A DNA stretch of 64,000 nucleotides from Desulfobacterales bacterium (GTDB lineage: Bacteria; Desulfobacterota; Desulfobacteria; Desulfobacterales; JAIPEE01): NCBI GenBank assembly GCA_021737275.1, contig JAIPEE010000015.1, forward strand, positions 12,772-76,771, in the 5' to 3' direction. The position numbers and the translations under genes are program-made. Below are positions 11,498-40,699 of the stretch, in pieces (the stretch's first letter is position 1; every line of letters begins with the position of its first letter). Under the pieces are notes generated by a model. It was not told the origin of the DNA and searched no databases. It saw only the letters and a program-made list of their open reading frames with translations.

Positions 11498-14400
11498 TTA
11501 ACTTAAAGCCGAAACAATATATTCAGCCGTCTTTTCAGCGGACTTACCAAAAAGCATTTTCATGTCAACTAATTCAAGGAATTGATCCTCAAAAGTGATA
11601 CTGTTTTCCTGAACGATATTTTTAATTCTTTCATATTTGCCACCCAGAGCCTTAATTTTAACGGCAAGTTCAACTTCATCCCTGAATGCAATATTTAACA
11701 GGAGAAGATTTTCAATCCTGTTGGGCATAGCAGGGTCCGCGGAAATAATCGGTATGACGATGATGGTTCTGTTATCTTTTCGGCCGATGCCAATATAAAC
11801 ATTTCCTTCACGGACAATGATGCGCTTGGTGCCCTTGAGTCGGTTATCTTTTTCAACGCGTGATGGGATCTTTTCAAGTACACCTGATTTTTTGATGATT
11901 TCAATAGTTGATATGTCAGTAGGTTCACCCAGCAGATTGAGATTGTCAATCTTATAAAAAATAGAACCCTTGATATCAGATACAATGCCTTGAAGGTTTT
12001 TAAGTACGATAATATTATTATTGGAAAGCGTAGACGGTGATACTTCATGTTCTGTCAGTTTGTCAAAAAGAATACCTTCAAGCTTATCGCTGATACGACT
12101 GGTACCGACCGTAACCGTTTTAGCCTGGTGCTTTATTGCATCAACAGGTCGGGCCATTGAGTTAATCAGGTCTCCAAGGTTGTCAAAAAGAATAATCAGC
12201 AGATTTTTAGCGGTACCCTTAATGCCGAAATCAAGCTCAAAGTCAGATACGGACATCCTGCCCATGAGATATTTCATCACCAGTATCAGGTTGAGCGTTG
12301 CATCAATCCCCATGGTAGTCGGAAGCTCATTTGCCATTTTTTTCTTTCTGAACTCATAGTAAAAGGCAGCCACTTTTTCCCTGAATGACTTTTCAAGAAC
12401 AATCTCATATATATCAAGACCATTTTTTGCATGCTCATCAATGGATTTTTGAATTTCTTCGCGGGCATGGTGGAGAAACCTGGAGCCTTCATTGATAGAC
12501 AGGGCCGCATAATAACCCCACAAATGACCGGCCAACGTATTTAAAACCGGTGCCAGGTGTTCATCGACAAGCGGTACATTAAAGACAGCTTCAGCATAAG
12601 GCGTAAACCGGTCTTCACCTTCATTTGCAATAACAATGGGTGTTGCTTTATGCGCATGAAAAATCGCCGTATCTTTTATGATATCCCCGATAACTGAGCG
12701 CCTGGCACCTGCAGCGCAGACGATTATCAGCGGCTCCGAAGAGAGATCAATATGTTTTTTGTCTTCAACAAAATCAGTTGAAATGGTTTTATAGCAAAGC
12801 TCGCTGAGTTTAATACGGATTTCATCTGCAGAGGCTTTGTTGGGGCCACTTCCAACAACTGCCCAATACGTTTTTGAAACAGCTGATTTTTTAGCAGATG
12901 CTTCAATTTTATCCCTCATGGAGAGTACTTTCCTCATGTGTTCGGGCAATTCGAGAAGGCTTTTAATCTGTTCTGAAATAAAGTCGGCAGAGCGGCGATT
13001 TAGAATTTTTGATAGTTGGAGGCTGATTATTGCACCGGCAACGATCTGGGCATAAAAAGCTTTGGTTGATGCAACAGACATTTCAATATCTCTGCCGCTG
13101 CTGGTGTAGAATACACCATCCACTTTAAAGGTGATATCAGATTCCCTGCGGTTCACAATGGCCAAGGTTTGGCCGCCACGCTCCTTCACCATATCAATGG
13201 TCCGGTTGGTATCTGTTGTCGTGCCTGACTGACTGATTGCAATGACAAGAGCATCGGACATACTCTCGCTGTCATCTTTATCATTTAAAATAAAACCACT
13301 CAGTTCAGATGCTTTTAATGGTTTGACATACATTGACGGATTATGGAGGTAGTAATTCAGTATGTCAGCGCAAGCTTGGGCCGCAATACCGGCTGTTCCC
13401 TGACCTATAAAGAAAACTCTTTTGATTTTATTGTTTTTCAGGGAAACTTCTAATCTCTCAGGGAAAGTTGTTTTATCAAGAGAGATGATATGATGGCCGT
13501 ACTGTCTGTCAATTTTCCACCGATTCTGAAGTGTTTTTTCCACAGATTTCGGAGATTCAAGAATTTCCTTGAGAAAGAAATGAGGAAACTCCTGGCGGTC
13601 GATATCTCTTGAGGAGATTTCTGTGTAATTGATATCTTTTTCAGTAAGCTCAATAGGAGTACCGTCATAAGTCAAAGCCTTAATGCCGTTCAGTCCATTT
13701 CCTGATTCCTGATCCAGGATTAAAATCCGGCCATCGGAATTCCCGATCATTTTAATGTATGAAGGGGTCTCTTCAATAAAACCATAGACTTCGGATGTCG
13801 GCATGTAATGATCAGTTGCAAGGCCAATAAAAATTGCCTGACCGCTGCCCTTTTGAGCAAGAAATAACTTACCGGGCGCAAGGTCCGTATGCATCGATAT
13901 GGCGTGAGATCCTGTAAAATCACTTACTGCCAGGCGAAAAGCCTCTTCAATTTCAAAACCTTTTTCAAGATAATGTGTAACCCTGACAGGAATTATTTTG
14001 GTATCAGTTGTGATCTCTTCAGGGATTTTACTGCTACTTGTCTCATATATTTTTTTCAGCTCAAGGTAGTTATCAATATCACCGTTCAGGCAGGCATGAA
14101 TAATACCGGTCGTATTAACGGCAGTAGTATTATTATCTACAGGGTGACAATTAAATTCGTTTATGGAACCGACAGATGCCCAACGAGTATGAGACAATAT
14201 TGTATAGTTGAGATGTTCAAGACATGCCAGATCCTGCAGAATTATATCAGATATTATCTGTTCGCGAATAAAGCTGATGTTATCGCCAAGGTTGCCGATC
14301 TCTTTGGCAACTTTATAGGTCATGACAACAGCAATCTTTTTATTGTCTGACTTATTGACCCCGATGCTTTTATTCACAAGAATATTATCAGATGCGCGTT

Positions 14401-15190
14401 CGTTAAATTCATCTCTCAGGCCTTTATCCATAATTTTTTGCTGGAATTTATCATATTCGGAAACCGGCAGTGTAAACAGGATGGAGATACCGGCTGAATC
14501 TCTTCCGCGAACTTCAAGCCGGTCAATACTGTTTAAAACAGCATTGATTTTTTTATAAACAGCGAGTGAACTATCCGGTACCAGTGAATACTCAACCGGA
14601 TAAAGCTTTCTGATTCGGGAAAGATTATCGAGAATCTCTGCGGTTATACACCAGGCGATATCTTTTAAAATTGCAATGCGAGTGGACATTATATCAACAT
14701 CCGCTGCATCAAGGGTTCCCATCTGTTTGATAAACTGTTCAGATTCTGTAGCAATTATATATTTGAGGCGTTTTGAAGTATCTGAAAGTACGGTTTCTAA
14801 AATGCTGTCACGGGATATCCTGATAAAGACACTATCTTCCTTCAGGGCTCTGACTTTTTCACGAAAGGATGAAATCTGTTCAGGTCCTGAAAGATAAGAA
14901 TCTTTAAAGGCAGCCTGACTATTACTGCAGGCTGAAAAGCCGTATTTCTCAACTTCACGGATAGCATCATCCAGAGGAGTAATATCAAAATTCGCCACAG
15001 ATTTACTACCCCTTGCAATGGCAACGATACCGGTAAACCCGCAACAGAGCGTAGAACTACAGCAAGGGAAAAAAACAATTGCGTTTTCCGGCATTTTCGA
15101 TAAATGTTTACACCAGAAGACATTTGTTCGAAGAAGACCGAATAAAAATTTTACATACTTCCAAAGCGTCAGAAAAAAAATTGTACACAT
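11498..15190 (-). CDS. Giant GlmS-like protein: split class II glutamine amidotransferase domain, two SIS domains and a C-terminal extension
   Basis: CGFTGIV ... LEVRGRDSAGI, HTRWASVGS..NCHP, NGDIDNY (GATase-2). ISQSGTTTDT and VVGSGPNKASADE (SIS x2). AKTVTVG resembles the GlmS tail. Start is uncertain (15190 or 15094). Confidence 0.8.
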   Translation of the reverse strand: MCTIFFLTLWKYVKFLFGLLRTNVFWCKHLSKMPENAIVFFPCCSSTLCCGFTGIVAIARGSKSVANFDITPLDDAIREVEKYGFSACSNSQAAFKDSYLSGPEQISSFREKVRALKEDSVFIRISRDSILETVLSDTSKRLKYIIATESEQFIKQMGTLDAADVDIMSTRIAILKDIAWCITAEILDNLSRIRKLYPVEYSLVPDSSLAVYKKINAVLNSIDRLEVRGRDSAGISILFTLPVSEYDKFQQKIMDKGLRDEFNERASDNILVNKSIGVNKSDNKKIAVVMTYKVAKEIGNLGDNISFIREQIISDIILQDLACLEHLNYTILSHTRWASVGSINEFNCHPVDNNTTAVNTTGIIHACLNGDIDNYLELKKIYETSSSKIPEEITTDTKIIPVRVTHYLEKGFEIEEAFRLAVSDFTGSHAISMHTDLAPGKLFLAQKGSGQAIFIGLATDHYMPTSEVYGFIEETPSYIKMIGNSDGRILILDQESGNGLNGIKALTYDGTPIELTEKDINYTEISSRDIDRQEFPHFFLKEILESPKSVEKTLQNRWKIDRQYGHHIISLDKTTFPERLEVSLKNNKIKRVFFIGQGTAGIAAQACADILNYYLHNPSMYVKPLKASELSGFILNDKDDSESMSDALVIAISQSGTTTDTNRTIDMVKERGGQTLAIVNRRESDITFKVDGVFYTSSGRDIEMSVASTKAFYAQIVAGAIISLQLSKILNRRSADFISEQIKSLLELPEHMRKVLSMRDKIEASAKKSAVSKTYWAVVGSGPNKASADEIRIKLSELCYKTISTDFVEDKKHIDLSSEPLIIVCAAGARRSVIGDIIKDTAIFHAHKATPIVIANEGEDRFTPYAEAVFNVPLVDEHLAPVLNTLAGHLWGYYAALSINEGSRFLHHAREEIQKSIDEHAKNGLDIYEIVLEKSFREKVAAFYYEFRKKKMANELPTTMGIDATLNLILVMKYLMGRMSVSDFELDFGIKGTAKNLLIILFDNLGDLINSMARPVDAIKHQAKTVTVGTSRISDKLEGILFDKLTEHEVSPSTLSNNNIIVLKNLQGIVSDIKGSIFYKIDNLNLLGEPTDISTIEIIKKSGVLEKIPSRVEKDNRLKGTKRIIVREGNVYIGIGRKDNRTIIVIPIISADPAMPNRIENLLLLNIAFRDEVELAVKIKALGGKYERIKNIVQENSITFEDQFLELVDMKMLFGKSAEKTAEYIVSALS

Positions 15191-27467: not shown

Positions 27468-28424
27468 ATGAAAAAACAGTTTATGGATACGTTGAGTGCC
27501 GGTGATCTGGTTGATGACCTTTTCGCCCTTGCCGAGAAAACAATTGCCCGGAAACGTGACGGCAATAATTACATGAATGTCAAGCTTCAGGACAAAACCG
27601 GTAATATTAAAGGTGTTGTCTGGGATAATGTTGATCAGATTTCTGAAAATGTCTCTTCAGGTGATGTGGTCCATGTGCAGGGCAGCGTTTCGGAATACAA
27701 AGGTGTTCTTCAACTGGTTGTAAAATCAATGAGTCCTTGTGATGGGGGCCGGATCGATCCGGCCGATTTTCTTCCGGCCACCAGTCGTGATATCGGGAAA
27801 ATGTTTGATCGGCTTTTAACGATCATTGAAACTGTTGAATCTGAAGATATTAAAAACCTGCTTGACGCTTTTTTCAAAGATCCGGAATTTGTAAAAAAAT
27901 TTAAAACTGCGCCGGCCGCCAAGCTGATGCATCATGCCTATATCGGCGGATTGCTTGAGCACACCCTGTCCATGTCAATTCTTGTGGACAAGGTGGCGGG
28001 GCATTACGGTCAGGTGGACAGGGACTTGTTACTTGCAGGGGCCATGCTGCATGATATCGGTAAGATTAAGGAGCTTGAGTATGATCTTCAGATAGATTAT
28101 TCCGATCAGGGCAGAATGCTGAGCCATATCATTATCGGTGTAGAGATGATTAATGAGAGACTTGCAACGATAGATGCTTTTCCTGAAGAGAAGGCATGCC
28201 TCCTCAAGCATATGATTATCAGTCATCATGGATCCCGTGAATTTGGTTCTCCGGAACCGCCCAAAACAATAGAGGCTGTTCTCCTTAATTATATTGATGA
28301 GATGGATGCCAAAGTAACTGCAATCCGGAATTTTATGGCTGGAGAAGATGAAAACGCATCGTGGACCGCTTATCACCGTTTGCTGGGACGCCATTTTTAT
28401 ATGGGCAACAGGAAAGAAAACTGA
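27468..28424 (+). CDS. OB-fold plus HD-domain 3'-5' exoribonuclease (YhaM-like)
   Basis: N-terminal OB fold (KLQDKTGNIKGVVWD) and HD domain (HHAYIGGLLEHT...MLHDIGK...ISHHG). Confidence 0.8.
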   Translation: MKKQFMDTLSAGDLVDDLFALAEKTIARKRDGNNYMNVKLQDKTGNIKGVVWDNVDQISENVSSGDVVHVQGSVSEYKGVLQLVVKSMSPCDGGRIDPADFLPATSRDIGKMFDRLLTIIETVESEDIKNLLDAFFKDPEFVKKFKTAPAAKLMHHAYIGGLLEHTLSMSILVDKVAGHYGQVDRDLLLAGAMLHDIGKIKELEYDLQIDYSDQGRMLSHIIIGVEMINERLATIDAFPEEKACLLKHMIISHHGSREFGSPEPPKTIEAVLLNYIDEMDAKVTAIRNFMAGEDENASWTAYHRLLGRHFYMGNRKEN

Positions 28425-28426
28425 GT

Positions 28427-29059
28427 ATGTTTATTACACTTGAGGGAATTGAAGGATCCGGTAAGACAACACAGATGGAAAACATGGTCGCCTTTCTGGA
28501 AAACAGAGGCCATTCCTGTGCCGTAACCAGGGAGCCGGGCGGTACACCCATTGGCCGGAAGATCCGGTCAATACTACTGGATCCTGAAAGTAAAGGAATG
28601 GATCCGCTTACCGAGCTGATGCTTTATATGGCGGACCGGGCGCAACATATCAAAACAGTCGTTTTACCGGCAATGAAGGACGGAAAAATAATTTTGTGCG
28701 ACCGTTATTTTGATGCTACGCTTGTGTACCAGGGTATGGCACGCGGTCTTGATGTTGATCTGATTAATAATCTTCATAATATGGTGCTTGACGGATTGAA
28801 GCCTGATATCACCTTTCTGCTCGATCTTCCCCCCGAAGTGGGGCTTTCCCGGGCCTGGAAACAGATAAACAGTGGTGACCGGACAGGAAGTGAAACCCGG
28901 TTTGAAAACGAGAAACTCGCATTTCATGAAAAGGTCAGGGCCGGTTATCTTGAGCTTTCAAGACTTGAACCTGACCGCTACAATGTGGTAGATGCAGTGC
29001 AAAGTGCCGAATTGGTGCAACGGTCGATTGAAAGCGTACTTTCATCTTTTATTAAATGA
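28427..29059 (+). CDS. tmk: Thymidylate kinase
   Basis: MFITLEGIEGSGKTTQ P-loop, DRY motif (CDRYFDATLVYQG), and an ATG 3 nt after the upstream stop. Confidence 0.93.
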   Translation: MFITLEGIEGSGKTTQMENMVAFLENRGHSCAVTREPGGTPIGRKIRSILLDPESKGMDPLTELMLYMADRAQHIKTVVLPAMKDGKIILCDRYFDATLVYQGMARGLDVDLINNLHNMVLDGLKPDITFLLDLPPEVGLSRAWKQINSGDRTGSETRFENEKLAFHEKVRAGYLELSRLEPDRYNVVDAVQSAELVQRSIESVLSSFIK

Positions 29060-29155: not shown

Positions 29156-31432
29156 ATGAGCTACTCAATTCTGGATGCCATCGGTAATACACCGCTGGTT
29201 GAGATAAAACATCTGAATCCCAATCCCAAAGTCCGGATTCTTGCAAAGTTGGAATATATGAATCCGGGTGGATCAGTCAAGGACAGGGCCGCACTTTATC
29301 TGATTGAAGCAGGAGAAAAATCCGGAGAACTAACCCATGAAAAGATAGTTATCGAAGCAACCAGCGGGAATACAGGTATCGGGCTGGCTATGGTTTGCAG
29401 TGTAAAAGGTTACCGGCTTTTGCTGGCGATGTCTGACGCGGTGAGTATCGAGCGGAGAAAAATCCTTAAGGCACGCGGCGCAGATATTCTTTTGACCCCC
29501 GGACATCTGGGAACGGATGGCGCCATAGAAGAGGTTTACAGGCTGGCAAGAGAAAATCCGGATAAGTATTATATGGCAGATCAGTATAATAGTGAAGCCA
29601 ATTGGAAAGCTCATTATAATGGCACTGCAGTAGAGGTATGGGATCAAACGGATGGTGCGGTGACAACGCTTGTTGCAACCATTGGAACCACAGGCACGCT
29701 TATGGGGATGTCGCGGCGACTCAAGGACTATAATCCGGACATCCGCATTGTTGGCGTCGAGCCGTACCTGGGACACAAGATTCAAGGCCTTAAAAATATG
29801 AAAGAGGCCTACTGCCCTGAAATATACAATAAAAAACTGCTTGATGTAAAAGTTAATATTGATGATGAAGATGCCTTTGAAATGGCACGGAACCTTGCCA
29901 GGGTAGAGGGGTTGTTTGTCGGCATGAGCAGCGGGGCTGCAATGGCCATTGCGGTTAAGGAAGCCGAAAAGATGGAAGAGGGCACCATTGTGGTTATGTG
30001 CCCTGACAGCGGTGAAAGGTACCTGAGCACCACTCTTTTTGCCGAGCAGGAAAAGATCGAGATGCGGGTGTTCAATACCATGAGCCACTCCAAGGAACCA
30101 TTTGATCCGATTCATCCGGGAAAAGCCTCTGTATACTCCTGTGGCCCAACGGCTTATGCCCCTATACATCTCGGTGAGGCCAGACGGTTTATCTTTTCAG
30201 ATATTTTATGCCGCTATCTTGAATTCCGAGGGTATGATGTCAATCACATCATGAATATTACGGATCTGGATGATAAAACCATCATTGATTCTGAAAAGGC
30301 CGGCAAACCGATAGAAGCATTTACGGGTGAACATATTGCATCATTCAAGAGGGATCTTAAATCTCTTGGCATAAAACCGGCCGCAAAATATCCACTGGCC
30401 AGTGAGCATGTAGAAGATATGGTCCAGCTGGCAGACAAGCTTACACAGAAGGGTTATGCATATGAAAAACTCCGGTCGCTCTATTTCAATATTTCCCGAT
30501 TTCCTGAATATGGCCGCCTGTCCGGCATTGATCTGGACAAAATAAAGCTTGGCGCCACTGTGGATCTTGATGAGTATGAAAAGGAAAATCCCAGGGATTT
30601 TACGTTGCTCAAACGATCAAAGCTTTCCGAACTCAAAAGAGGTATCTATGCCAAAACGGCCTGGGGAAATGTAAGACCCTCATGGCATATCCAATGCCCG
30701 GCCATTTCCATGAAACATCTGGGTGAGCGTTTTGATATCCATACCAGCAGCAGGGAGCTTGTATTCCCCCACCATGAAAATGTTCATGCCATTGCATCTG
30801 CCGTAACCGGTAAACCACTGGTTAAATACTGGATGCACTGTGATAATGTTATGGTTGAGGGCAAGCAGATTGGCGATAAAGGTGACCGGATTACCTTAAA
30901 AGATTTAACGGATAAAGGCTATACGCCAAGGGATATTCGCTACTGGCTACTGGCGACACATTACAGAAAGCCTGTTATTTATTCTGAAAGTAGTCTGGCC
31001 AATACAAGTCAGGCGCTTAAGCGGCTGGATACATTTATTGCAAGTCTTAAAAATCATAAATCGGGCTCTGAATACCAGGACCTTGATCAATTGTTATATG
31101 ATATAAGAAACGGGTTCATTCGTGCGATGGATGATGATCTTAATATGTCTGCAGCGCTGGCATCGTTGTTTAAAATCGTAAAAAAGGTCAACATTCTTAT
31201 GTTTGAAGGCGGCATTGATAAAGATGGCGCCCTGAAGGTTGCAGGGATATTCAATGATATTGATTCAGTGCTGAATATTTTTTCAATGAAAAAAAATATT
31301 GCAGACAATAATGTTGAAAATCTTCTTGAAAAAAGAGAACAGGCAAGAAGGGAGAAAAAATTTGAACTTGCCGATTTGCTTCGCAATCAGCTTCTGGATA
31401 TGGGCGTAGAAGTAAAGGATGAAAAAATTTAA
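29156..31432 (+). CDS. Fusion protein: cysteine synthase (PLP fold type II, CysK/CysM-like) plus a cysteinyl-tRNA-synthetase-like domain with degenerate HIGH/KMSKS motifs
   Basis: Residues 1-300 carry SVKDR, TSGNTG and GTTGT. Residues about 305-758 align with CysRS from memory (SCGPT, WHIQCP, FPHHEN, AMDDDLN). HIGH is HLGE and no KMSKS is recognisable. One uninterrupted ORF. Confidence 0.85.
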   Translation: MSYSILDAIGNTPLVEIKHLNPNPKVRILAKLEYMNPGGSVKDRAALYLIEAGEKSGELTHEKIVIEATSGNTGIGLAMVCSVKGYRLLLAMSDAVSIERRKILKARGADILLTPGHLGTDGAIEEVYRLARENPDKYYMADQYNSEANWKAHYNGTAVEVWDQTDGAVTTLVATIGTTGTLMGMSRRLKDYNPDIRIVGVEPYLGHKIQGLKNMKEAYCPEIYNKKLLDVKVNIDDEDAFEMARNLARVEGLFVGMSSGAAMAIAVKEAEKMEEGTIVVMCPDSGERYLSTTLFAEQEKIEMRVFNTMSHSKEPFDPIHPGKASVYSCGPTAYAPIHLGEARRFIFSDILCRYLEFRGYDVNHIMNITDLDDKTIIDSEKAGKPIEAFTGEHIASFKRDLKSLGIKPAAKYPLASEHVEDMVQLADKLTQKGYAYEKLRSLYFNISRFPEYGRLSGIDLDKIKLGATVDLDEYEKENPRDFTLLKRSKLSELKRGIYAKTAWGNVRPSWHIQCPAISMKHLGERFDIHTSSRELVFPHHENVHAIASAVTGKPLVKYWMHCDNVMVEGKQIGDKGDRITLKDLTDKGYTPRDIRYWLLATHYRKPVIYSESSLANTSQALKRLDTFIASLKNHKSGSEYQDLDQLLYDIRNGFIRAMDDDLNMSAALASLFKIVKKVNILMFEGGIDKDGALKVAGIFNDIDSVLNIFSMKKNIADNNVENLLEKREQARREKKFELADLLRNQLLDMGVEVKDEKI

Positions 31433-31560: not shown

Positions 31561-32535
31561 ATGAAGCCGATATATTTTCCATATACATGTGTGTCCGGAC
31601 AGGTTATGACTGTCTTAAAAGATTTTTTTGAAAGTATTATCGTGTGCTTTCCTTCGAAACTGGATATACCTGAAAGCATGCAAACGTTTCAGAATGATGG
31701 TTTTCTGGAGATAATAACACCGGTGGCAGGAGATGAGGATGCTATTCGGAAAAGTATGGCATCATTTCAATCCTGGGCAAATATTCATGAGGGCCGAAGC
31801 CCGGCATTTTTGAAAAGCCGGAAGGAGAGCGTCCCCTTTTATGATGATACGGTGACAACCCATATCCGAACTGAGATTAACAGGTATAAAGACGACAAGC
31901 TTGAAAATGCTGATGCATCAACAATTTTTCCCGCCAGACTATTTCTTCAGATTGCCCATGATTTTGATCTAAACAGTCTTGATGCAGAAAACACGCTCTC
32001 TTCCCTTGGTGATACGGAAAAAAATATTATGACAGAACTGAAGGGCGGAAAAGATGTGCTGTTTCCTGACCATACAGGAGGAGTAGTGCCGGCGCCCGGC
32101 GGGGTCTCCAACTATATGGTTCCGGAAAGAATCCGGGCATGGTGCCGGCTCATGCTTCAGTCCGATGATATCCCTTCTGTTTTTATAACGGCCGGACGAA
32201 CCGCATATGAGTATATGCTTGATAATATGCCTGAAGCGACTACTGTTGTTGAAAATATACATACTAATTCCGGTGGAAAATCCGGTAAGGTTCTTGACGG
32301 CTATCTGAAATCACTTGCTGTTAAAGGGGCTGTTGCAGATGCCGGTATTGAGGCGGCTTTGGCGGAAGCCGGACAAAATGGGAAAATGGTATCTTTATCC
32401 ATAAGTGTATTGGCCGGTGTTAAACCAGGCATTTTTCTGGCAAAATGTTCGGGTTCTGAGAATATGGATTTAGATTCGGACCCGGATAAAAAGGTATGTA
32501 CCAATACCGTAGTGGTATTGGTTGAGCTTATATAA
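31561..32535 (+). CDS. Hypothetical protein (324 aa)
   Basis: Long ORF with typical coding composition. No recognised family. Confidence 0.45.
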   Translation: MKPIYFPYTCVSGQVMTVLKDFFESIIVCFPSKLDIPESMQTFQNDGFLEIITPVAGDEDAIRKSMASFQSWANIHEGRSPAFLKSRKESVPFYDDTVTTHIRTEINRYKDDKLENADASTIFPARLFLQIAHDFDLNSLDAENTLSSLGDTEKNIMTELKGGKDVLFPDHTGGVVPAPGGVSNYMVPERIRAWCRLMLQSDDIPSVFITAGRTAYEYMLDNMPEATTVVENIHTNSGGKSGKVLDGYLKSLAVKGAVADAGIEAALAEAGQNGKMVSLSISVLAGVKPGIFLAKCSGSENMDLDSDPDKKVCTNTVVVLVELI

Positions 32536-32739: not shown

Positions 32740-32928
32740 ATGTCTTTTAATCCTATCGTAGATCAATCAAAATGTGAAGGTTGTGAAGAGTGTGTAGATG
32801 TTTGTCCCGTTGAAGTATTTGAAATGGTTGACGGCAAATCTTCTCCTGTTAATGCAGAAGAATGCCTGGGTTGTGAAAGCTGTGTAGAAGTTTGTGAACC
32901 CAATGCAATCGTAATCGAAGAAGACTAA
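32740..32928 (+). CDS. 2x[4Fe-4S] ferredoxin
   Basis: 62 aa with CEGCEECVDVCP and CLGCESCVEVCEP cluster motifs. AGGAG lies upstream. Confidence 0.88.
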   Translation: MSFNPIVDQSKCEGCEECVDVCPVEVFEMVDGKSSPVNAEECLGCESCVEVCEPNAIVIEED

Positions 32929-32981: not shown

Positions 32982-33176
32982 TTATCCTCCCTGACAAAAT
33001 CTTGTATTTTATCTGCAGAACAATATTTCTGTATCAGAATAATCATACGATACAGATTGTTGATTGTTGAAAAAGTTTTTTAACAGCCAATATGTTCGAA
33101 AATATTCCCCTAAACTACAACTCTTGGTATAAATTTTTCATTGCACCACTATATCACGTATGCTAAGTACGTGAAG

Positions 33177-33509
33177 ATGAAACAATATGTCATAGATGAA
33201 TTAAGATTTGAAGATTATGATAAATTAAAGCTCTATCTCGATAAACATCTTAACGATCGTTCTTTTGACGGAGTTTACTGGATACCTTTAGAATCTGAGC
33301 TGTTTTCTGAAGTACAGGCTGAACATAAAGATTGTCAGCCCTATTTTTTTGCCCTTGAACTGGAACAACATCGCATTTCATGCGAACTGCTTGTGCGTAC
33401 AAAAGGTAAAATCCGGTGTGACTGTATATGCCATGCAAATGAGATTCAGCGAAACTGGCTTATTGATTATATGGATGCAATACTGGAAAAACTTGAAATT
33501 ATTGCATAA
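33177..33509 (+). CDS. Hypothetical small protein (110 aa) with a CxC...C..H cluster
   Basis: ORF upstream of rnj, containing RCDCICHANE. No recognised family. Confidence 0.4.
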   Translation: MKQYVIDELRFEDYDKLKLYLDKHLNDRSFDGVYWIPLESELFSEVQAEHKDCQPYFFALELEQHRISCELLVRTKGKIRCDCICHANEIQRNWLIDYMDAILEKLEIIA

Positions 33510-37838: not shown

Positions 37839-39218
37839 ATGTCTCAAGGTTTAAAAAGAGAATTGAAAAGTCGGCACTTGGCCATGATTTCCATCGGCGC
37901 AATTATCGGCACGGGGCTGTTTCTAAATTCAGGCTACACGATTAGCTCCGCGGGACCCGGCGGTAGTTTGCTCTGCTACATAGCCGGCGGTTTTCTAATG
38001 TGGCTCGTGATGGTCTGTCTGGCAGAGCTTGCCGTTGCCATGCCGGAATCCGGGTCGTTCCATGAATACAGCAGCCGACTGGCATCTCCTGCTGTTGGAA
38101 ATGCCATTGGATGGCTTTACTGGTTTTCATGGGTGCTGACTATTGCATGGTATCTGAGTGCTGTGGGCATCTATATGCAGTACTGGTGGAAAGGTAGTCC
38201 GCTCTGGCTATGGTATTTGGTATTCGGAGCGGTGCTTTTTATTTTCAACTGCCTCTCCGTGAAGGTTTTCGGGGAGGGCCAATTCTGGTTCGCTGGGCTC
38301 AAAGTGTTTGCTGTCCTGATTTTCATTTTGATCGGCCTGGCGGCGGTCTTTGGCGGTTTTGGCGAGAAGGTGCCCGGCCTTCAAAATCTTATGGCGGTTA
38401 AAGGATTCTTTCCAGTGGCATTTATTGCGGTTCTTCCGGTAATGATGAATGTCTCTTTTTCGTATCAGGGCTGTGAGGTGCTGGGAAATACGGCAGGAGA
38501 AAGTCAGAATCCGGCTAAGGAGATTCCCCGTGCCATTCGAAGCACGGTTTTGCAGGTAACCGGCGTTTACGTCGTCAGTGTTTTGGTCCTTATGACCTGT
38601 CTGCCCTGGACAAGTTTTGGAATGGATGAAAGTCCTTTTGTCACAGTTCTCAGCCGGCTCGGTATTCCGGGAGTTGACCATATTATGAATATTATTGTCA
38701 TAACTGCAGCGCTTTCCGCTGCCAATTCGGCTGTTTATACCTGCACGCGGTTTACATACAGCCTTGCCTTAAAAGGTGCGGCACCAAAATCCATGATGTT
38801 GCTGAATAAGAGAAAGATCCCTTTTAATGCGCTGCTGCTTACCAGCGCAGGTATCGCTATTTGTATTTTGAGCGGCGAAATTCCTCTACTGGCCAATACC
38901 GTCAATGTCTGGATGTGGGCAGTATCAGGCATTATCGGGGCGATTGCCTGGATCATGATTGGTATCTGCCTTATTTTGTTCCGGAGACATCTTGCCAGGG
39001 AAGGAAAATCCGTTTCGGATCTTGCCTACCGATCGCCAGGATACCCGCTGGTTCCAATTCTTGTGATTGTTCTGAACATAGCGATACTGTTCAGTATGCT
39101 GGCGTCACCAGACCAGCGTCTTTCTTTGTATGTTGGCGTTCCGGTTGTGGTGGTGACGTTTCTTTTTTTCTTCTTTAGAGAAAATACTAAACAGGTGAAC
39201 GAGAAAAAAATGCTATAG
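37839..39218 (+). CDS. Amino acid permease (APC superfamily, AAT family)
   Basis: LKRELKSRHLAMISIGAIIGTGLF signature and about 12 TM helices. AAGGAAGG lies upstream. Confidence 0.88.
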   Translation: MSQGLKRELKSRHLAMISIGAIIGTGLFLNSGYTISSAGPGGSLLCYIAGGFLMWLVMVCLAELAVAMPESGSFHEYSSRLASPAVGNAIGWLYWFSWVLTIAWYLSAVGIYMQYWWKGSPLWLWYLVFGAVLFIFNCLSVKVFGEGQFWFAGLKVFAVLIFILIGLAAVFGGFGEKVPGLQNLMAVKGFFPVAFIAVLPVMMNVSFSYQGCEVLGNTAGESQNPAKEIPRAIRSTVLQVTGVYVVSVLVLMTCLPWTSFGMDESPFVTVLSRLGIPGVDHIMNIIVITAALSAANSAVYTCTRFTYSLALKGAAPKSMMLLNKRKIPFNALLLTSAGIAICILSGEIPLLANTVNVWMWAVSGIIGAIAWIMIGICLILFRRHLAREGKSVSDLAYRSPGYPLVPILVIVLNIAILFSMLASPDQRLSLYVGVPVVVVTFLFFFFRENTKQVNEKKML

Positions 39219-39274
39219 GGGTTTTATAATAGACCGTTATGATTCTCTCATAAAGCGGAAAAAGGAGAAATAGG

Positions 39275-40699
39275 ATGAATACCGTTATACCGAAAATTAC
39301 CGTATTAAACAGCGACCAAATAGCCGTTGTCCATGATTATTCCTTAAAAATTCTGTCTTCCACGGGGATCCGTGTCGACTCGGTCCGGGCTAGAAAATTT
39401 TTTGAAGATGCCATAGGCAAACCATCGGAAGACAACCGGGTACGGATTCCGGCCGAACTGGTGGCCCAGGCGCTGGAAACCGCACCGCATGAGATCAGTG
39501 TTTACAACCGAAAAAAACAGCATGCCTTCACCCTGGGAGACGACCAGCCGCGTTTCGGCATCGGGGTAACGAATCTCTATTACCAGGACCCGGCTACTGA
39601 CCAGGTAGAGCCTTTCACCCGAAAGCATATGGAGATTTCCACAAGACTGGGCGAGGCTCTGCACAGTTATGATGTAGTTTCCACTATTGGCATTGCAAGG
39701 GATCTTCCGGCAGATGTCGCCGATTTTTACGGCACTCTGGAGATGGTTGCCAATACGGTGAAACCGCTTGTTCTTCTGGTTTCTGAAGAGAAGTGTTTCG
39801 CCCCTGTGCTGGATCTTTTAGAGCATCTGCACGGTGACTTGGCGGAGAAACCTTTTGTGGTGCCGTATTTTAATCCCATCACCCCCCTGGTCATTAACGA
39901 GGGCACTGTCGATAAGATGATTATCGCCATAAAAAAGGGGTTGCCCATCATCTATTCAAATTACGGAATGTCGGGTGCATCGACGCCCATAACCCCTACC
40001 GCTACACTGGCCTTGATGAATGCCGAACTTCTGGCCGGGTTGGTACTCAGCCAGCTTATCAAAGAGGGTGCCCCTGTTATTTTGGGCAGTCTGCCGGCCA
40101 GCTTTGATATGAAAACCTCGGGGACCGTGTACACGCCCACCAGCCTTCTGGTCAACATCGCTTGTGCCGAAATGATGGACTATTATAGAATTCCCCACTG
40201 TGGGACCTCCGGAAGCGGTGCAGGCTGGGGGCCGGATTTGACTGCGGCAGGTCCGTTGTGGATCAATCATTTGACCAGTTGCCTTGGGAAAGTTGGATTG
40301 GCACCTTTTGTGGGAGGGAATTTTGATTCTCTGGCCTTTTCACCTGCAACGGTCGTTTATTCCGACCAGATTATCCGGCAGTCGCGTCAATTCGCAAAGG
40401 AATTTGAATTAAATGAAGAGACGATTGCAATGGATGAGATCAATTCGATCGGGCCAGGAGGAGATTATCTGACGGCTCCCCTGACATTGAAACTCTTTCG
40501 CAAGGCTATGGCCGGTAATGATATCTGGCCGAATTTAAGCCTGGAAAAGTGGCAGCAGGAGGCGCGACCCTGCCGGGGCGATGATTTTCTTAGAAAACGG
40601 ACTATGGAGCTGATTGACGGCCTTCAGGCCCCTCAAGATCATGATATGCTGATCGAGCGAGGCGAAGCATTTATCAGCAAAGGGGCAGGGGCCAAATGA
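39275..40699 (+). CDS. MttB-superfamily (trimethylamine methyltransferase-like) protein, non-pyrrolysine type
   Basis: 474-aa uninterrupted ORF with an MttB-family N-terminus (LNSDQIAVVHDYSLKILSSTGIRV) and TIM-barrel length. No in-frame TAG. Confidence 0.8.
   Translation: MNTVIPKITVLNSDQIAVVHDYSLKILSSTGIRVDSVRARKFFEDAIGKPSEDNRVRIPAELVAQALETAPHEISVYNRKKQHAFTLGDDQPRFGIGVTNLYYQDPATDQVEPFTRKHMEISTRLGEALHSYDVVSTIGIARDLPADVADFYGTLEMVANTVKPLVLLVSEEKCFAPVLDLLEHLHGDLAEKPFVVPYFNPITPLVINEGTVDKMIIAIKKGLPIIYSNYGMSGASTPITPTATLALMNAELLAGLVLSQLIKEGAPVILGSLPASFDMKTSGTVYTPTSLLVNIACAEMMDYYRIPHCGTSGSGAGWGPDLTAAGPLWINHLTSCLGKVGLAPFVGGNFDSLAFSPATVVYSDQIIRQSRQFAKEFELNEETIAMDEINSIGPGGDYLTAPLTLKLFRKAMAGNDIWPNLSLEKWQQEARPCRGDDFLRKRTMELIDGLQAPQDHDMLIERGEAFISKGAGAK

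Follow-up and report, generated by a model that had tools for sequence, protein, structure and literature searches.

The 64,000-nt stretch of Desulfobacterales DNA analysed here (contig JAIPEE010000015.1, hereafter the window) encodes at 29156-31432, on the forward strand, a protein in which a cysteine synthase is joined to a homologue of cysteinyl-tRNA synthetase (CysRS). The gene very probably specifies a complete O-acetyl(phospho)serine sulfhydrylase, producing free cysteine, fused to a non-adenylating CysRS paralogue of a distinct lineage (RR-type, named for its R42-R43 pair) that keeps the cysteine pocket and the residues reading the GCA anticodon, and that is co-transcribed with an orphan gene, unk324, and a ferredoxin gene. 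By analogy with known pseudo-synthetases, we tentatively propose that the non-charging module senses tRNA-Cys and cysteine and thereby couples cysteine synthesis to the status of tRNA-Cys, a role that we regard as possible, if somewhat short of probable. Nucleotide positions below are those of the window and amino acid (aa) numbers those of its fusion protein; comparisons with canonical CysRS follow Escherichia coli numbering.

The reading frame runs without interruption through 758 codons and a stop, and its product is 100% identical to a GenBank protein from a metagenome-assembled genome (MAG) named 'cysteine--tRNA ligase [Desulfobacterales bacterium]'. An intact synthase of the CysK/CysM type is followed, over a joint of about six residues, by a full-length CysRS homologue, and Pfam recognizes in succession PALP (aa 5-284, E = 5.8e-69), tRNA-synt_1e (aa 316-617, E = 8.1e-82), DALR_2 (aa 654-709, E = 2.2e-8) and CysS_C (aa 719-757, E = 2.8e-6). 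The initial annotation of this DNA, made from its letters alone, had described a single 758-codon frame with the cysteine synthase hallmarks SVKDR, TSGNTG and GTTGT, a linker AEQEKIE and a full-length CysRS-like module; all of these are present, domain and PDB alignments place the boundaries as described, and the frame does not represent two genes, since 120 proteins and 80 loci share the architecture. The CysRS-like half opens with MRVFNT at aa 303 and carries SCGPT (C329), WHIQC (C514), FPHHEN (H539) and AMDDDLN (657-663), the last four as quoted in that annotation. A model of the full fusion computed with AlphaFold2 (AF2) was of low quality (pLDDT 67.5, pTM 0.45, core segments below 50), the underlying alignment being probably too shallow.

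The N-terminal half passes the cut-off of the NCBIfam cysKM model TIGR01136 (356.4 against 344.15), and in the PDB it is closest to cysteine synthases (E = 1e-74 to 1e-69); scores below the cut-offs of both the cysM- and the cysK-specific equivalogs leave the choice between the CysK and CysM subtypes undecided. Its signatures comprise SVKDR with K42, TSGNTG at aa 69-74, Q143 and GTTGT at aa 177-181, and K42, TSGNTG, Q143 and GTxGT are invariant in the alignment of the fusion family. In O-acetylserine sulfhydrylase, the TSGNTG loop and Q143 hold the free alpha-carboxylate of the substrate. Their invariance argues that the pyridoxal phosphate (PLP) site acts on a free amino acid and not on an esterified aminoacyl-tRNA, and the N-terminal half as a whole points to ordinary synthesis of free cysteine.

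The homology of the C-terminal half with canonical CysRS (E. coli CysS 1LI5/1U0B; archaeal-type 8QHP) covers the full length, Rossmann fold and C-terminal anticodon-binding domain included. This half scores just over the cut-off of the NCBIfam cysS model TIGR00435 (365.5 against 340) and aligns with the solved enzymes 8qhp (E = 2.7e-101) and 1li5 of E. coli (E = 1.6e-78). The window protein differs from the canonical enzymes by its fusion to CysK, by its membership of the separate RR-type lineage and by the loss of its ATP-site motifs: in the same alignments HLGH is replaced by HLGE, IHGGG(N/S)DL by IHTSSREL and KMSKSLGN by QIG-DKGDR, so that the degenerate motifs noted at the outset, with VEGKQIGDKGDR at the expected KMSKS site, are all recovered.

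These substitutions are common to the family, as judged from a comparison set of 194 canonical CysRS, 191 non-identical members of the clade and E. coli CysRS. Among the 94 near-invariant positions, defined as conserved in at least 90% of the canonical enzymes, 74 hold the same residue in the clade and 20 differ. The changes within the ATP site are G226S, G227S, D229E, M267V, K269E and those at S270, G272 and N273; the changes outside it are V32A, Y33H, T115S, R168T, W184L and W194T, together with G201V, G204S, E208Q, S210A, Q241I and S242A. The signature H-[ILV]-G-[HN] is broken at its last residue, position 40, which is N in 172 and H in 22 canonical enzymes; among clade members it is E in 146, Q in 27 and never N or H. 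The anomaly of HIGH is an E or Q at a fourth position that elsewhere always holds N or H. In the GGGxD block, G226, present in all 194 canonical enzymes, is S in 152 and G in 36 clade members, D229 (193 of 194) has become E in 172, and position 228 carries a new arginine conserved in 175 of the 191. As for KMSKS, K269 and S270 are both invariant in the canonical set (194 of 194), whereas only seven clade members retain K269, E being found in 116, and S270 is variable. The equivalent loop has a length of 18 against 19 and is poorly conserved (top-residue fractions of 0.33-0.6), the first lysine, K266, being kept in 135 of 191 relatives and replaced by Q in the window protein. Class I synthetases depend on HIGH and on the second lysine of KMSKS to stabilise the transition state when the amino acid is activated. 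Since three ATP-site elements are altered together and the KMSKS-equivalent loop is unconserved, ATP-dependent activation of cysteine at this site is judged unlikely.

The cysteine pocket and core have been retained. Residues kept in the clade include C28, G29, T31, R42, T68, D69, K73, W205, H206, C209, H224, the FPHHEN block (H234) and E238 (0.81). In the window protein, the Zn/cysteine pocket is made of C329, T369 (E. coli T68), W510, H511, C514 and H539, that is, three of the four Zn ligands with the equivalents of T68 and W205. The fourth ligand, E238, corresponds to V543 with a histidine adjacent, which refines the ligand set first proposed; it is E in 155 of the 191 clade members, and the clade consensus has all four.

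Similarly, a C-terminal cluster is kept throughout the clade (D349, N351, R423, R427, D436, R439, G446 and D451, at 0.88-1.00), and R727, R731, F736, D740, R743, G750 and D755 of the window protein correspond to E. coli R423, R427, W432, D436, R439, G446 and D451. In the structure 1U0B the GCA anticodon is contacted by Arg427, which bonds G34, and by Trp432, Asp436 and Arg439 (PMC13449415). Equivalents of these contacts are found in the window protein as R731, F736, D740 and R743; within the clade R427, D436 and R439 are conserved at about 0.99, and W432 is W in 165 members and F in 23, as in the window. The CysRS-like half is no decaying relic: its core has a mean top-residue fraction of 0.79 in the clade, against 0.84 in the CysK half, and some 50 consecutive aa of the connective peptide (CP) region are nearly invariant. 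The conservation indicates purifying selection acting family-wide on the fusion, and the contrast between lost and kept positions indicates an ATP site selectively dismantled around a maintained Zn-thiolate cysteine pocket and maintained tRNA-Cys readers. The earlier suggestion that the domain may bind cysteine, and perhaps tRNA, and is unlikely to adenylate thus gains support from the 94-position comparison.

The survey across genomes that the initial annotation had called for revealed a large family. The next 119 database matches are all full-length fusions of 758-773 aa with 68-72% identity to the window protein. A scan of one genome per species yielded at least 564 candidate stretches, of which the best 80 were inspected, some of the others being possibly single-domain relatives; these 80 are all full-length fusions, save for a few truncated where their contig stops, and identity to the window fusion is still 54-57% at rank 80. 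Carriers among them include Desulfobacula, Desulfospira, the isolate Desulfobotulus alkaliphilus, Desulfatitalea, Desulfosalsimonas, Desulfococcus and Desulfosudaceae, and the family is widespread in Desulfobacterales. An artefact of assembly joining cysK to cysS has practically no chance of explaining the gene: the 120 database proteins, the 80 reference-genome loci and the closed 8.03-Mb genome of Desulfonema magnum, which carries the fusion, refute it, the motif changes are common to the whole family, and nothing speaks in its favour, though a split cysK/cysRS-like version does exist in other organisms.

Divergent full-length relatives, obtained by an exhaustive search with the whole fusion and read motif by motif in the alignment, form a degeneration series. 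At one end stands P0124, a CysK-CysRS fusion of 768 aa from a Nanoarchaeota MAG with canonical HIGN, GGIDL and KMSKS, followed by the near-canonical P0122 and P0280, with HLGN or HIGL and KMSRS. The clade of the window has lost HIGH, GGGxD and KMSKS, and fusions of the P0121 type have lost H37, T68 and C209 in addition. At the other end, P0129, P0131 and P0125 (775 aa, from the complete genome of Desulfovibrio ferrophilus, annotated 'cysteine synthase') are devoid of the two Zn cysteines and of almost every active-site residue; P0125 is without any ATP motif but retains R423, R427, D436, R439 and D451. Throughout the series the CysK signatures are intact, R423, D436, G446 and D451 are unchanged, and R427 and R439 are R or K. 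The persistence of the anticodon readers even in the three proteins devoid of Zn cysteines suggests tRNA-Cys binding as the common denominator of the lineage. Selection across the lineage would thus have preserved the tethering of an active cysteine synthase to a module that binds tRNA-Cys specifically, and in Desulfobacterales the cysteine pocket as well.

In a distance tree with 100 bootstraps, the RR-type clade was separated from 70 canonical CysRS included for comparison in 97 of 100 replicates, and took in all fusions except P0124 as well as stand-alone CysRS-like proteins. The degenerate forms have a single origin within this clade (83/100), nested among members with KM(S/A)(R/K)S, which would be the usual path of a paralogue freed from its housekeeping role. 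P0124 groups with ordinary CysRS, a placement that rules out one clade for all CysK-CysRS fusions, and this fusion is probably independent in origin; in its reduced-genome archaeon it probably truly channels cysteine to tRNA charging. A split version of the pair occurs on two metagenomic contigs, where a 296-aa PALP gene is followed after a gap of 2 nt by a stand-alone RR-type protein (P0142, with HIGT/KMARS). Aligned from end to end, the PALP protein of this operon (locus L003) shares 60% identity with the CysK half of the window protein, and the recurrence of the same pairing as adjacent genes argues that it is functional and no accident of one fusion. Loss of catalytic motifs combined with physical coupling, here by fusion and in the split operon, is the profile of a non-catalytic aminoacyl-tRNA synthetase (aaRS) paralogue.

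A conserved operon of the fusion, unk324 and the ferredoxin is a new finding; these partners, like the size of the family and its degeneration series, go beyond what the initial annotation held. A homologue of unk324 (about 320-340 aa) lies within 300 nt downstream of the fusion in 51 of 80 loci by tblastn and in 58 of 79 by open reading frame (ORF) analysis, its start being typically 0-20 nt past the fusion stop or overlapping it, and 54 of 79 loci have the ferredoxin 1.0-1.3 kb past the fusion stop (a Fer4 call in L001, L002, L088 and L090). Many of the loci devoid of unk324 or ferredoxin break off at the end of their contig shortly past the fusion, and several others have an unk324 homologue 2-3 kb downstream. 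The upstream side is variable: most loci have tmk there, Desulfobacula-type loci a divergent lptD. No terminator-like site was found on the forward strand of the window between 28300 and 33700, and scans of the window with Rfam and for tRNAs detected no T-box, leader RNA or tRNA-Cys near the fusion. In locus L087, the site of near-canonical P0122, an unk324 homologue of 370 aa precedes the fusion, whose start it overlaps (hhalign probability 99.4%, E = 2.7e-21); the adjacency of the two genes has thus outlived a change of gene order. Conversely, two divergent unk324 homologues retrieved by profile search are each flanked by a fusion immediately upstream (763 and 761 aa) and by a ferredoxin downstream (L088, L090). 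The D. ferrophilus-type fusion (L091) has neither unk324 nor ferredoxin adjoining. An unannotated gene of 372 aa close to the L003 split operon, considered as a further homologue, proved not to be homologous to unk324.

The unk324 protein has no match in Pfam, NCBIfam or the PDB, either by sequence or by profile, and its database homologues are all 'hypothetical protein' from Desulfobacterales. Its AF2 model is of usable quality (pLDDT 75.8, pTM 0.74) and combines a long helical hairpin with an alpha/beta core; Foldseek retrieved no match for it in the PDB (best E = 2.8). GenBank gives the gene a start that yields 309 aa (K9L30_08745, 'hypothetical protein'); since the invariant YFPFT motif (F6, P7, T9) lies upstream of this start, the 324-aa ORF from 31561 is probably real.

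As a sensor, the CysRS-like half would resemble pseudo-synthetases that serve as ligand-sensing modules. HisZ, a paralogue of HisRS devoid of aminoacylation, is the regulatory subunit of ATP phosphoribosyltransferase, and GCN2 is a kinase with a degenerate HisRS-like domain that senses tRNA. The likeness to HisZ lies in an aaRS paralogue with its amino-acid pocket kept, coupled to a biosynthetic enzyme of its own amino acid; HisZ is a separate subunit without anticodon-binding domain, whereas the window protein keeps this domain in a covalent fusion and its regulation is here proposed. With GCN2 the fusion shares a degenerate synthetase domain joined to another enzyme, but GCN2 is a eukaryotic kinase that binds many uncharged tRNAs, and the GCA readers of the fusion imply specificity for tRNA-Cys. 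Following these precedents, the anticodon domain would bind tRNA-Cys together with the basic and highly conserved CP region, the Zn pocket would probe the 3' end of the tRNA or free cysteine, and the pseudo-synthetase would tune the activity or assembly of the tethered CysK dimer to the translational demand for cysteine. Uncharged tRNA-Cys together with scarce cysteine would lead to more synthesis and an occupied pocket to less, unk324 and possibly the ferredoxin acting as accessory subunits of the complex.

Several points weigh against such a sensor, and some of them would suit a working enzyme. Regulation, tRNA binding and the loss of charging are all deduced from sequence; a pure sensor has no obvious need for a conserved orphan partner and a ferredoxin; and the D. 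ferrophilus type, having no Zn pocket, implies that sensing of cysteine or of a charged 3' end is not a universal function. The genes around the fusion (tmk, surE, holB, lptD, rnj) are moreover constitutive housekeeping genes, a setting that would suit a primary synthetase, and a tblastn search with canonical CysRS of 980 kb of fusion flanks detected no second cysS. Finally, K266A and K269A mutants of E. coli CysRS, altered in the KMSKS lysines, still supported cell-free translation (PMC5660078), so that the loss of a lysine alone is no proof of inactivity. A divergent CysRS that still works, possibly as the housekeeping enzyme, and whose fusion to CysK channels oxidation-prone new cysteine onto tRNA-Cys, would account for these last observations as well as for the passing of the TIGR00435 equivalog cut-off, the very strong conservation and the intact cysteine pocket and tRNA readers; channelling is also the natural reading of the canonical fusion P0124 and of the near-canonical P0122 and P0280. 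We nevertheless hold this to be most improbable. The changes affect three ATP-site elements together, the shorter and unconserved loop shows no invariant lysine that might compensate, and S and E occupy positions 226 and 229, around the conserved R228, where canonical enzymes have an almost universal G and D. Sister lineages have also lost the Zn cysteines, which is sensible only if another enzyme charges tRNA-Cys, and P0124, an independent fusion that groups with ordinary CysRS, is no guide to the RR-type proteins.

Whether such an enzyme accompanies the fusion bears directly on this choice. No Desulfobacterales appeared in the cluster names of 20 representatives, the relatives of the best-scoring canonical one (P0146) being of Zixibacteria and Acidobacteria type, and the contexts of P0250 and P0428 looked non-Desulfobacterales. 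The supplements of three papers yielded a single annotated CysS, TOL2_C10990 of Desulfobacula toluolica Tol2, three genes after an AcrB-type MdtC. This MdtC context was not seen beside the fusion among the ORFs listed for the Desulfobacula locus L083, and in all Desulfobacula-type loci the fusion comes directly after lptD; the difference in context hints at a second CysRS. Fully degenerate relatives, which would be unable to charge tRNA, hint at the same. So do surveys of SepRS: in the parts of them available, the bacterial carriers named are Parcubacteria and Chloroflexi, Desulfobacterales are not named among them, and mention is made of a degenerate SepRS-like group, possibly deltaproteobacterial. 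We infer from these hints that fusion-bearing genomes probably possess a separate housekeeping CysRS.

The conserved partners give some weight to another possibility, in which the fusion, unk324 and the ferredoxin use aminoacyl-tRNA-Cys as a substrate and not as a signal. In a first version, Sep-, Ser- or dehydroalanyl-tRNA-Cys would be converted to Cys-tRNA-Cys in the manner of SepCysS or SelA; in a second, the cysteinyl residue of Cys-tRNA-Cys held in the Zn pocket would be modified or passed on, persulfidation and cysteinyl transfer being examples. The system would then resemble the cyclodipeptide synthases, class-I-aaRS-like enzymes that use aminoacyl-tRNA and whose ATP motifs are lost. 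The anticodon readers are kept everywhere, even without the Zn pocket, and the Desulfobacterales clade combines a Zn-thiolate pocket with a nearly invariant CP and acceptor-side region, as a protein binding a cysteinylated 3' end would have to; the very short linker puts the PLP active site beside the tRNA-binding module, and a translationally coupled orphan with a ferredoxin suggests an enzyme of several components in which one step is a redox reaction. According to one report, RNA-dependent biosynthesis of cysteine may proceed by diverse mechanisms (PMC5424206).

We nonetheless consider tRNA-linked chemistry unlikely. The fusion resembles the SepRS/SepCysS(/SepCysE) and SelA systems in placing a PLP enzyme next to tRNA-Cys and in the idea of a cysteine synthesis coupled to its tRNA, but SepCysS and SelA are fold-type I enzymes acting on esterified substrates, whereas the PLP domain of the window protein is PALP, of fold type II like CysK in general, and not the fold-type I enzyme expected of tRNA-dependent cysteine synthesis; its invariant TSGNTG loop and Q143 suit a free carboxylate. 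The available parts of the SepRS surveys, as described above, offer at most a degenerate and perhaps deltaproteobacterial SepRS-like group, the D. ferrophilus-type fusion has no partner genes nearby, and the linkage to the ferredoxin could be synteny inherited within one order. It is very unlikely, in particular, that the three genes form an as yet unknown tRNA-Cys-dependent sulfur or cysteine system working on a tRNA-bound residue in the Zn pocket, whose product would be Cys-tRNA-Cys made independently of ATP, or a persulfide or other product from Cys-tRNA-Cys. In its extreme version, if true, Desulfobacterales would be without canonical CysRS and the fusion system would be their route to Cys-tRNA-Cys.

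Two further known arrangements were compared with the fusion. MshC, like the window protein, is a CysRS paralogue with a Zn/cysteine pocket in a non-translational role, and retains HIGH and KMSKS without a tRNA anticodon domain. It adenylates cysteine, which is ligated to GlcN-Ins in mycothiol synthesis (PMC2922099). The window protein, on the contrary, has no ATP motifs and keeps a full anticodon-binding domain; it scores 182.8 on the MshC model TIGR03447, far below the cut-off of 485.1, and PDB matches to MshC cover only query residues 15-323. Since MshC-type ligation needs the ATP site, a role of this kind, raised as one option in the initial annotation, is disfavoured.

The other arrangement concerns the synthase half. 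CysK is a known moonlighting protein in complexes with CysE, CymR and CdiA-CT, where the cysteine synthase serves other proteins, a tRNase toxin included, as partner or regulator. A connection of CysRS with PLP and sulfur chemistry has also been reported, in the form of a PLP-dependent persulfide synthase activity of CARS (PMC5660078); of the four lysines said to bind PLP in the E. coli enzyme, three (K76, K266, K269) are absent from the window protein. Mimicry of the CysE tail by a C-terminal isoleucine, conceivable for a window protein ending in DEKI, in which this residue could block the CysK site in the manner of CysE, was rejected: this residue is terminal in only 12 of 120 relatives, and the CysE-like tail is thus not conserved in the family. 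The moonlighting of CysK lends some credit to a structural or localising appendage, an anchor to tRNA-Cys, to the translation machinery or to unk324, or else a domain for oligomerisation or stability, without control by a ligand; the most degenerate lineages, which keep a fold-level match and the anticodon readers with almost all active-site residues gone, would fit it too. We regard this as quite unlikely, because in the Desulfobacterales clade the Zn/cysteine pocket and the new conserved residues of the former ATP site (E40, S226, R228, E229) are strongly constrained and a passive anchor needs neither.

The features of the gene and of its two partners are collected in Table 1.

Table 1. Positions of the fusion gene, its functional elements and the two downstream partner genes in the window
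Feature	Position	Strand	Basis or remark
Whole CysK-CysRS-like fusion gene, 758 aa	29156..31432	+	Single ORF, domain matches, GenBank identity
PLP-dependent cysteine synthase domain, aa 5-284	29168..30007	+	Pfam PALP, TIGR01136, PDB matches
Codon of the PLP lysine K42	29279-29281	+	Within SVKDR
Linker AEQEKI, about aa 297-302	30044..30061	+	CysK alignments stop at aa 295-298, CysRS alignments begin at aa 302-303
CysRS-like Rossmann/CP catalytic core, aa 303-617	30062..31006	+	tRNA-synt_1e, PDB alignments, position-by-position comparison
HIGH-equivalent HLGE, aa 338-341	30167..30178	+	Comparison with 194 canonical CysRS
GGGxDL-equivalent TSSREL, aa 530-535	30743..30760	+	Comparison with 194 canonical CysRS
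KMSKS-equivalent loop KQIGDKGDR, aa 570-578	30863..30889	+	Degenerate, one residue short of canonical
DALR_2 helical and C-terminal anticodon-binding domains, aa 654-757	31115..31426	+	Pfam DALR_2, CysS_C
unk324, 324-aa orphan with N-terminal YFPFT motif	31561..32535	+	Conserved directly downstream of the fusion
62-aa 2x[4Fe-4S] ferredoxin	32740..32928	+	Two CxxCxxCxxxC(P) motifs, third gene of the trio

Some observations concern the neighbourhood of these genes. The order surE, HD/OB, tmk, fusion is kept in many Desulfobacterales loci. In the window, the HD/OB-fold (YhaM-like) gene and the tmk ORF (27468-29059, forward strand) overlap by 64 nt if tmk starts at an upstream GTG; its true start is probably an internal ATG (MFITLEG...). 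Between the ferredoxin and RNase J lies an ORF of 122 aa with several cysteines (33141-33509, forward strand). Farther away, an amino-acid permease is followed by a 474-aa gene of the MttB family (trimethylamine methyltransferase-like) without in-frame stop, presumably a non-pyrrolysine member (37839-40699, forward strand), and an ORF of 1230 aa occupies 11498-15190 on the reverse strand.

In the literature we found no description of a CysK-CysRS fusion or of this pseudo-synthetase, which is also missing from the nearest publication, one devoted to non-canonical class I aaRS-like proteins; this agrees with the initial annotation, which was aware of no characterised protein of this type. Recruitment of a synthetase paralogue to the biosynthesis of its amino acid is known as such; this instance, the persistence of tRNA reading and the orphan partner appear to be new. 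Because the fusion passes the TIGR00435 cut-off, pipelines name it cysteine--tRNA ligase, and since it lacks all three ATP-site signatures, the annotation and pathway reconstruction of Desulfobacterales genomes may be wrong on this point; the fusion could also be counted as the cysS marker or as its duplicate, and marker-gene counts may be wrong as well.

Desulfobacterales are ecologically dominant marine sulfate reducers, among which the fusion is widespread and strongly conserved, and its association with a ferredoxin and with unk324, a protein without sequence or fold match, hints at undescribed chemistry. The series leading from canonical proteins to loss of the ATP site and then of the Zn site, with the anticodon readers kept, offers a clean natural experiment in the conversion of a synthetase into a tRNA-binding module. 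If the module is indeed a sensor, the fusion would be the cysteine counterpart of HisZ and GCN2, in which amino-acid synthesis is linked to the state of the tRNA by covalent fusion.

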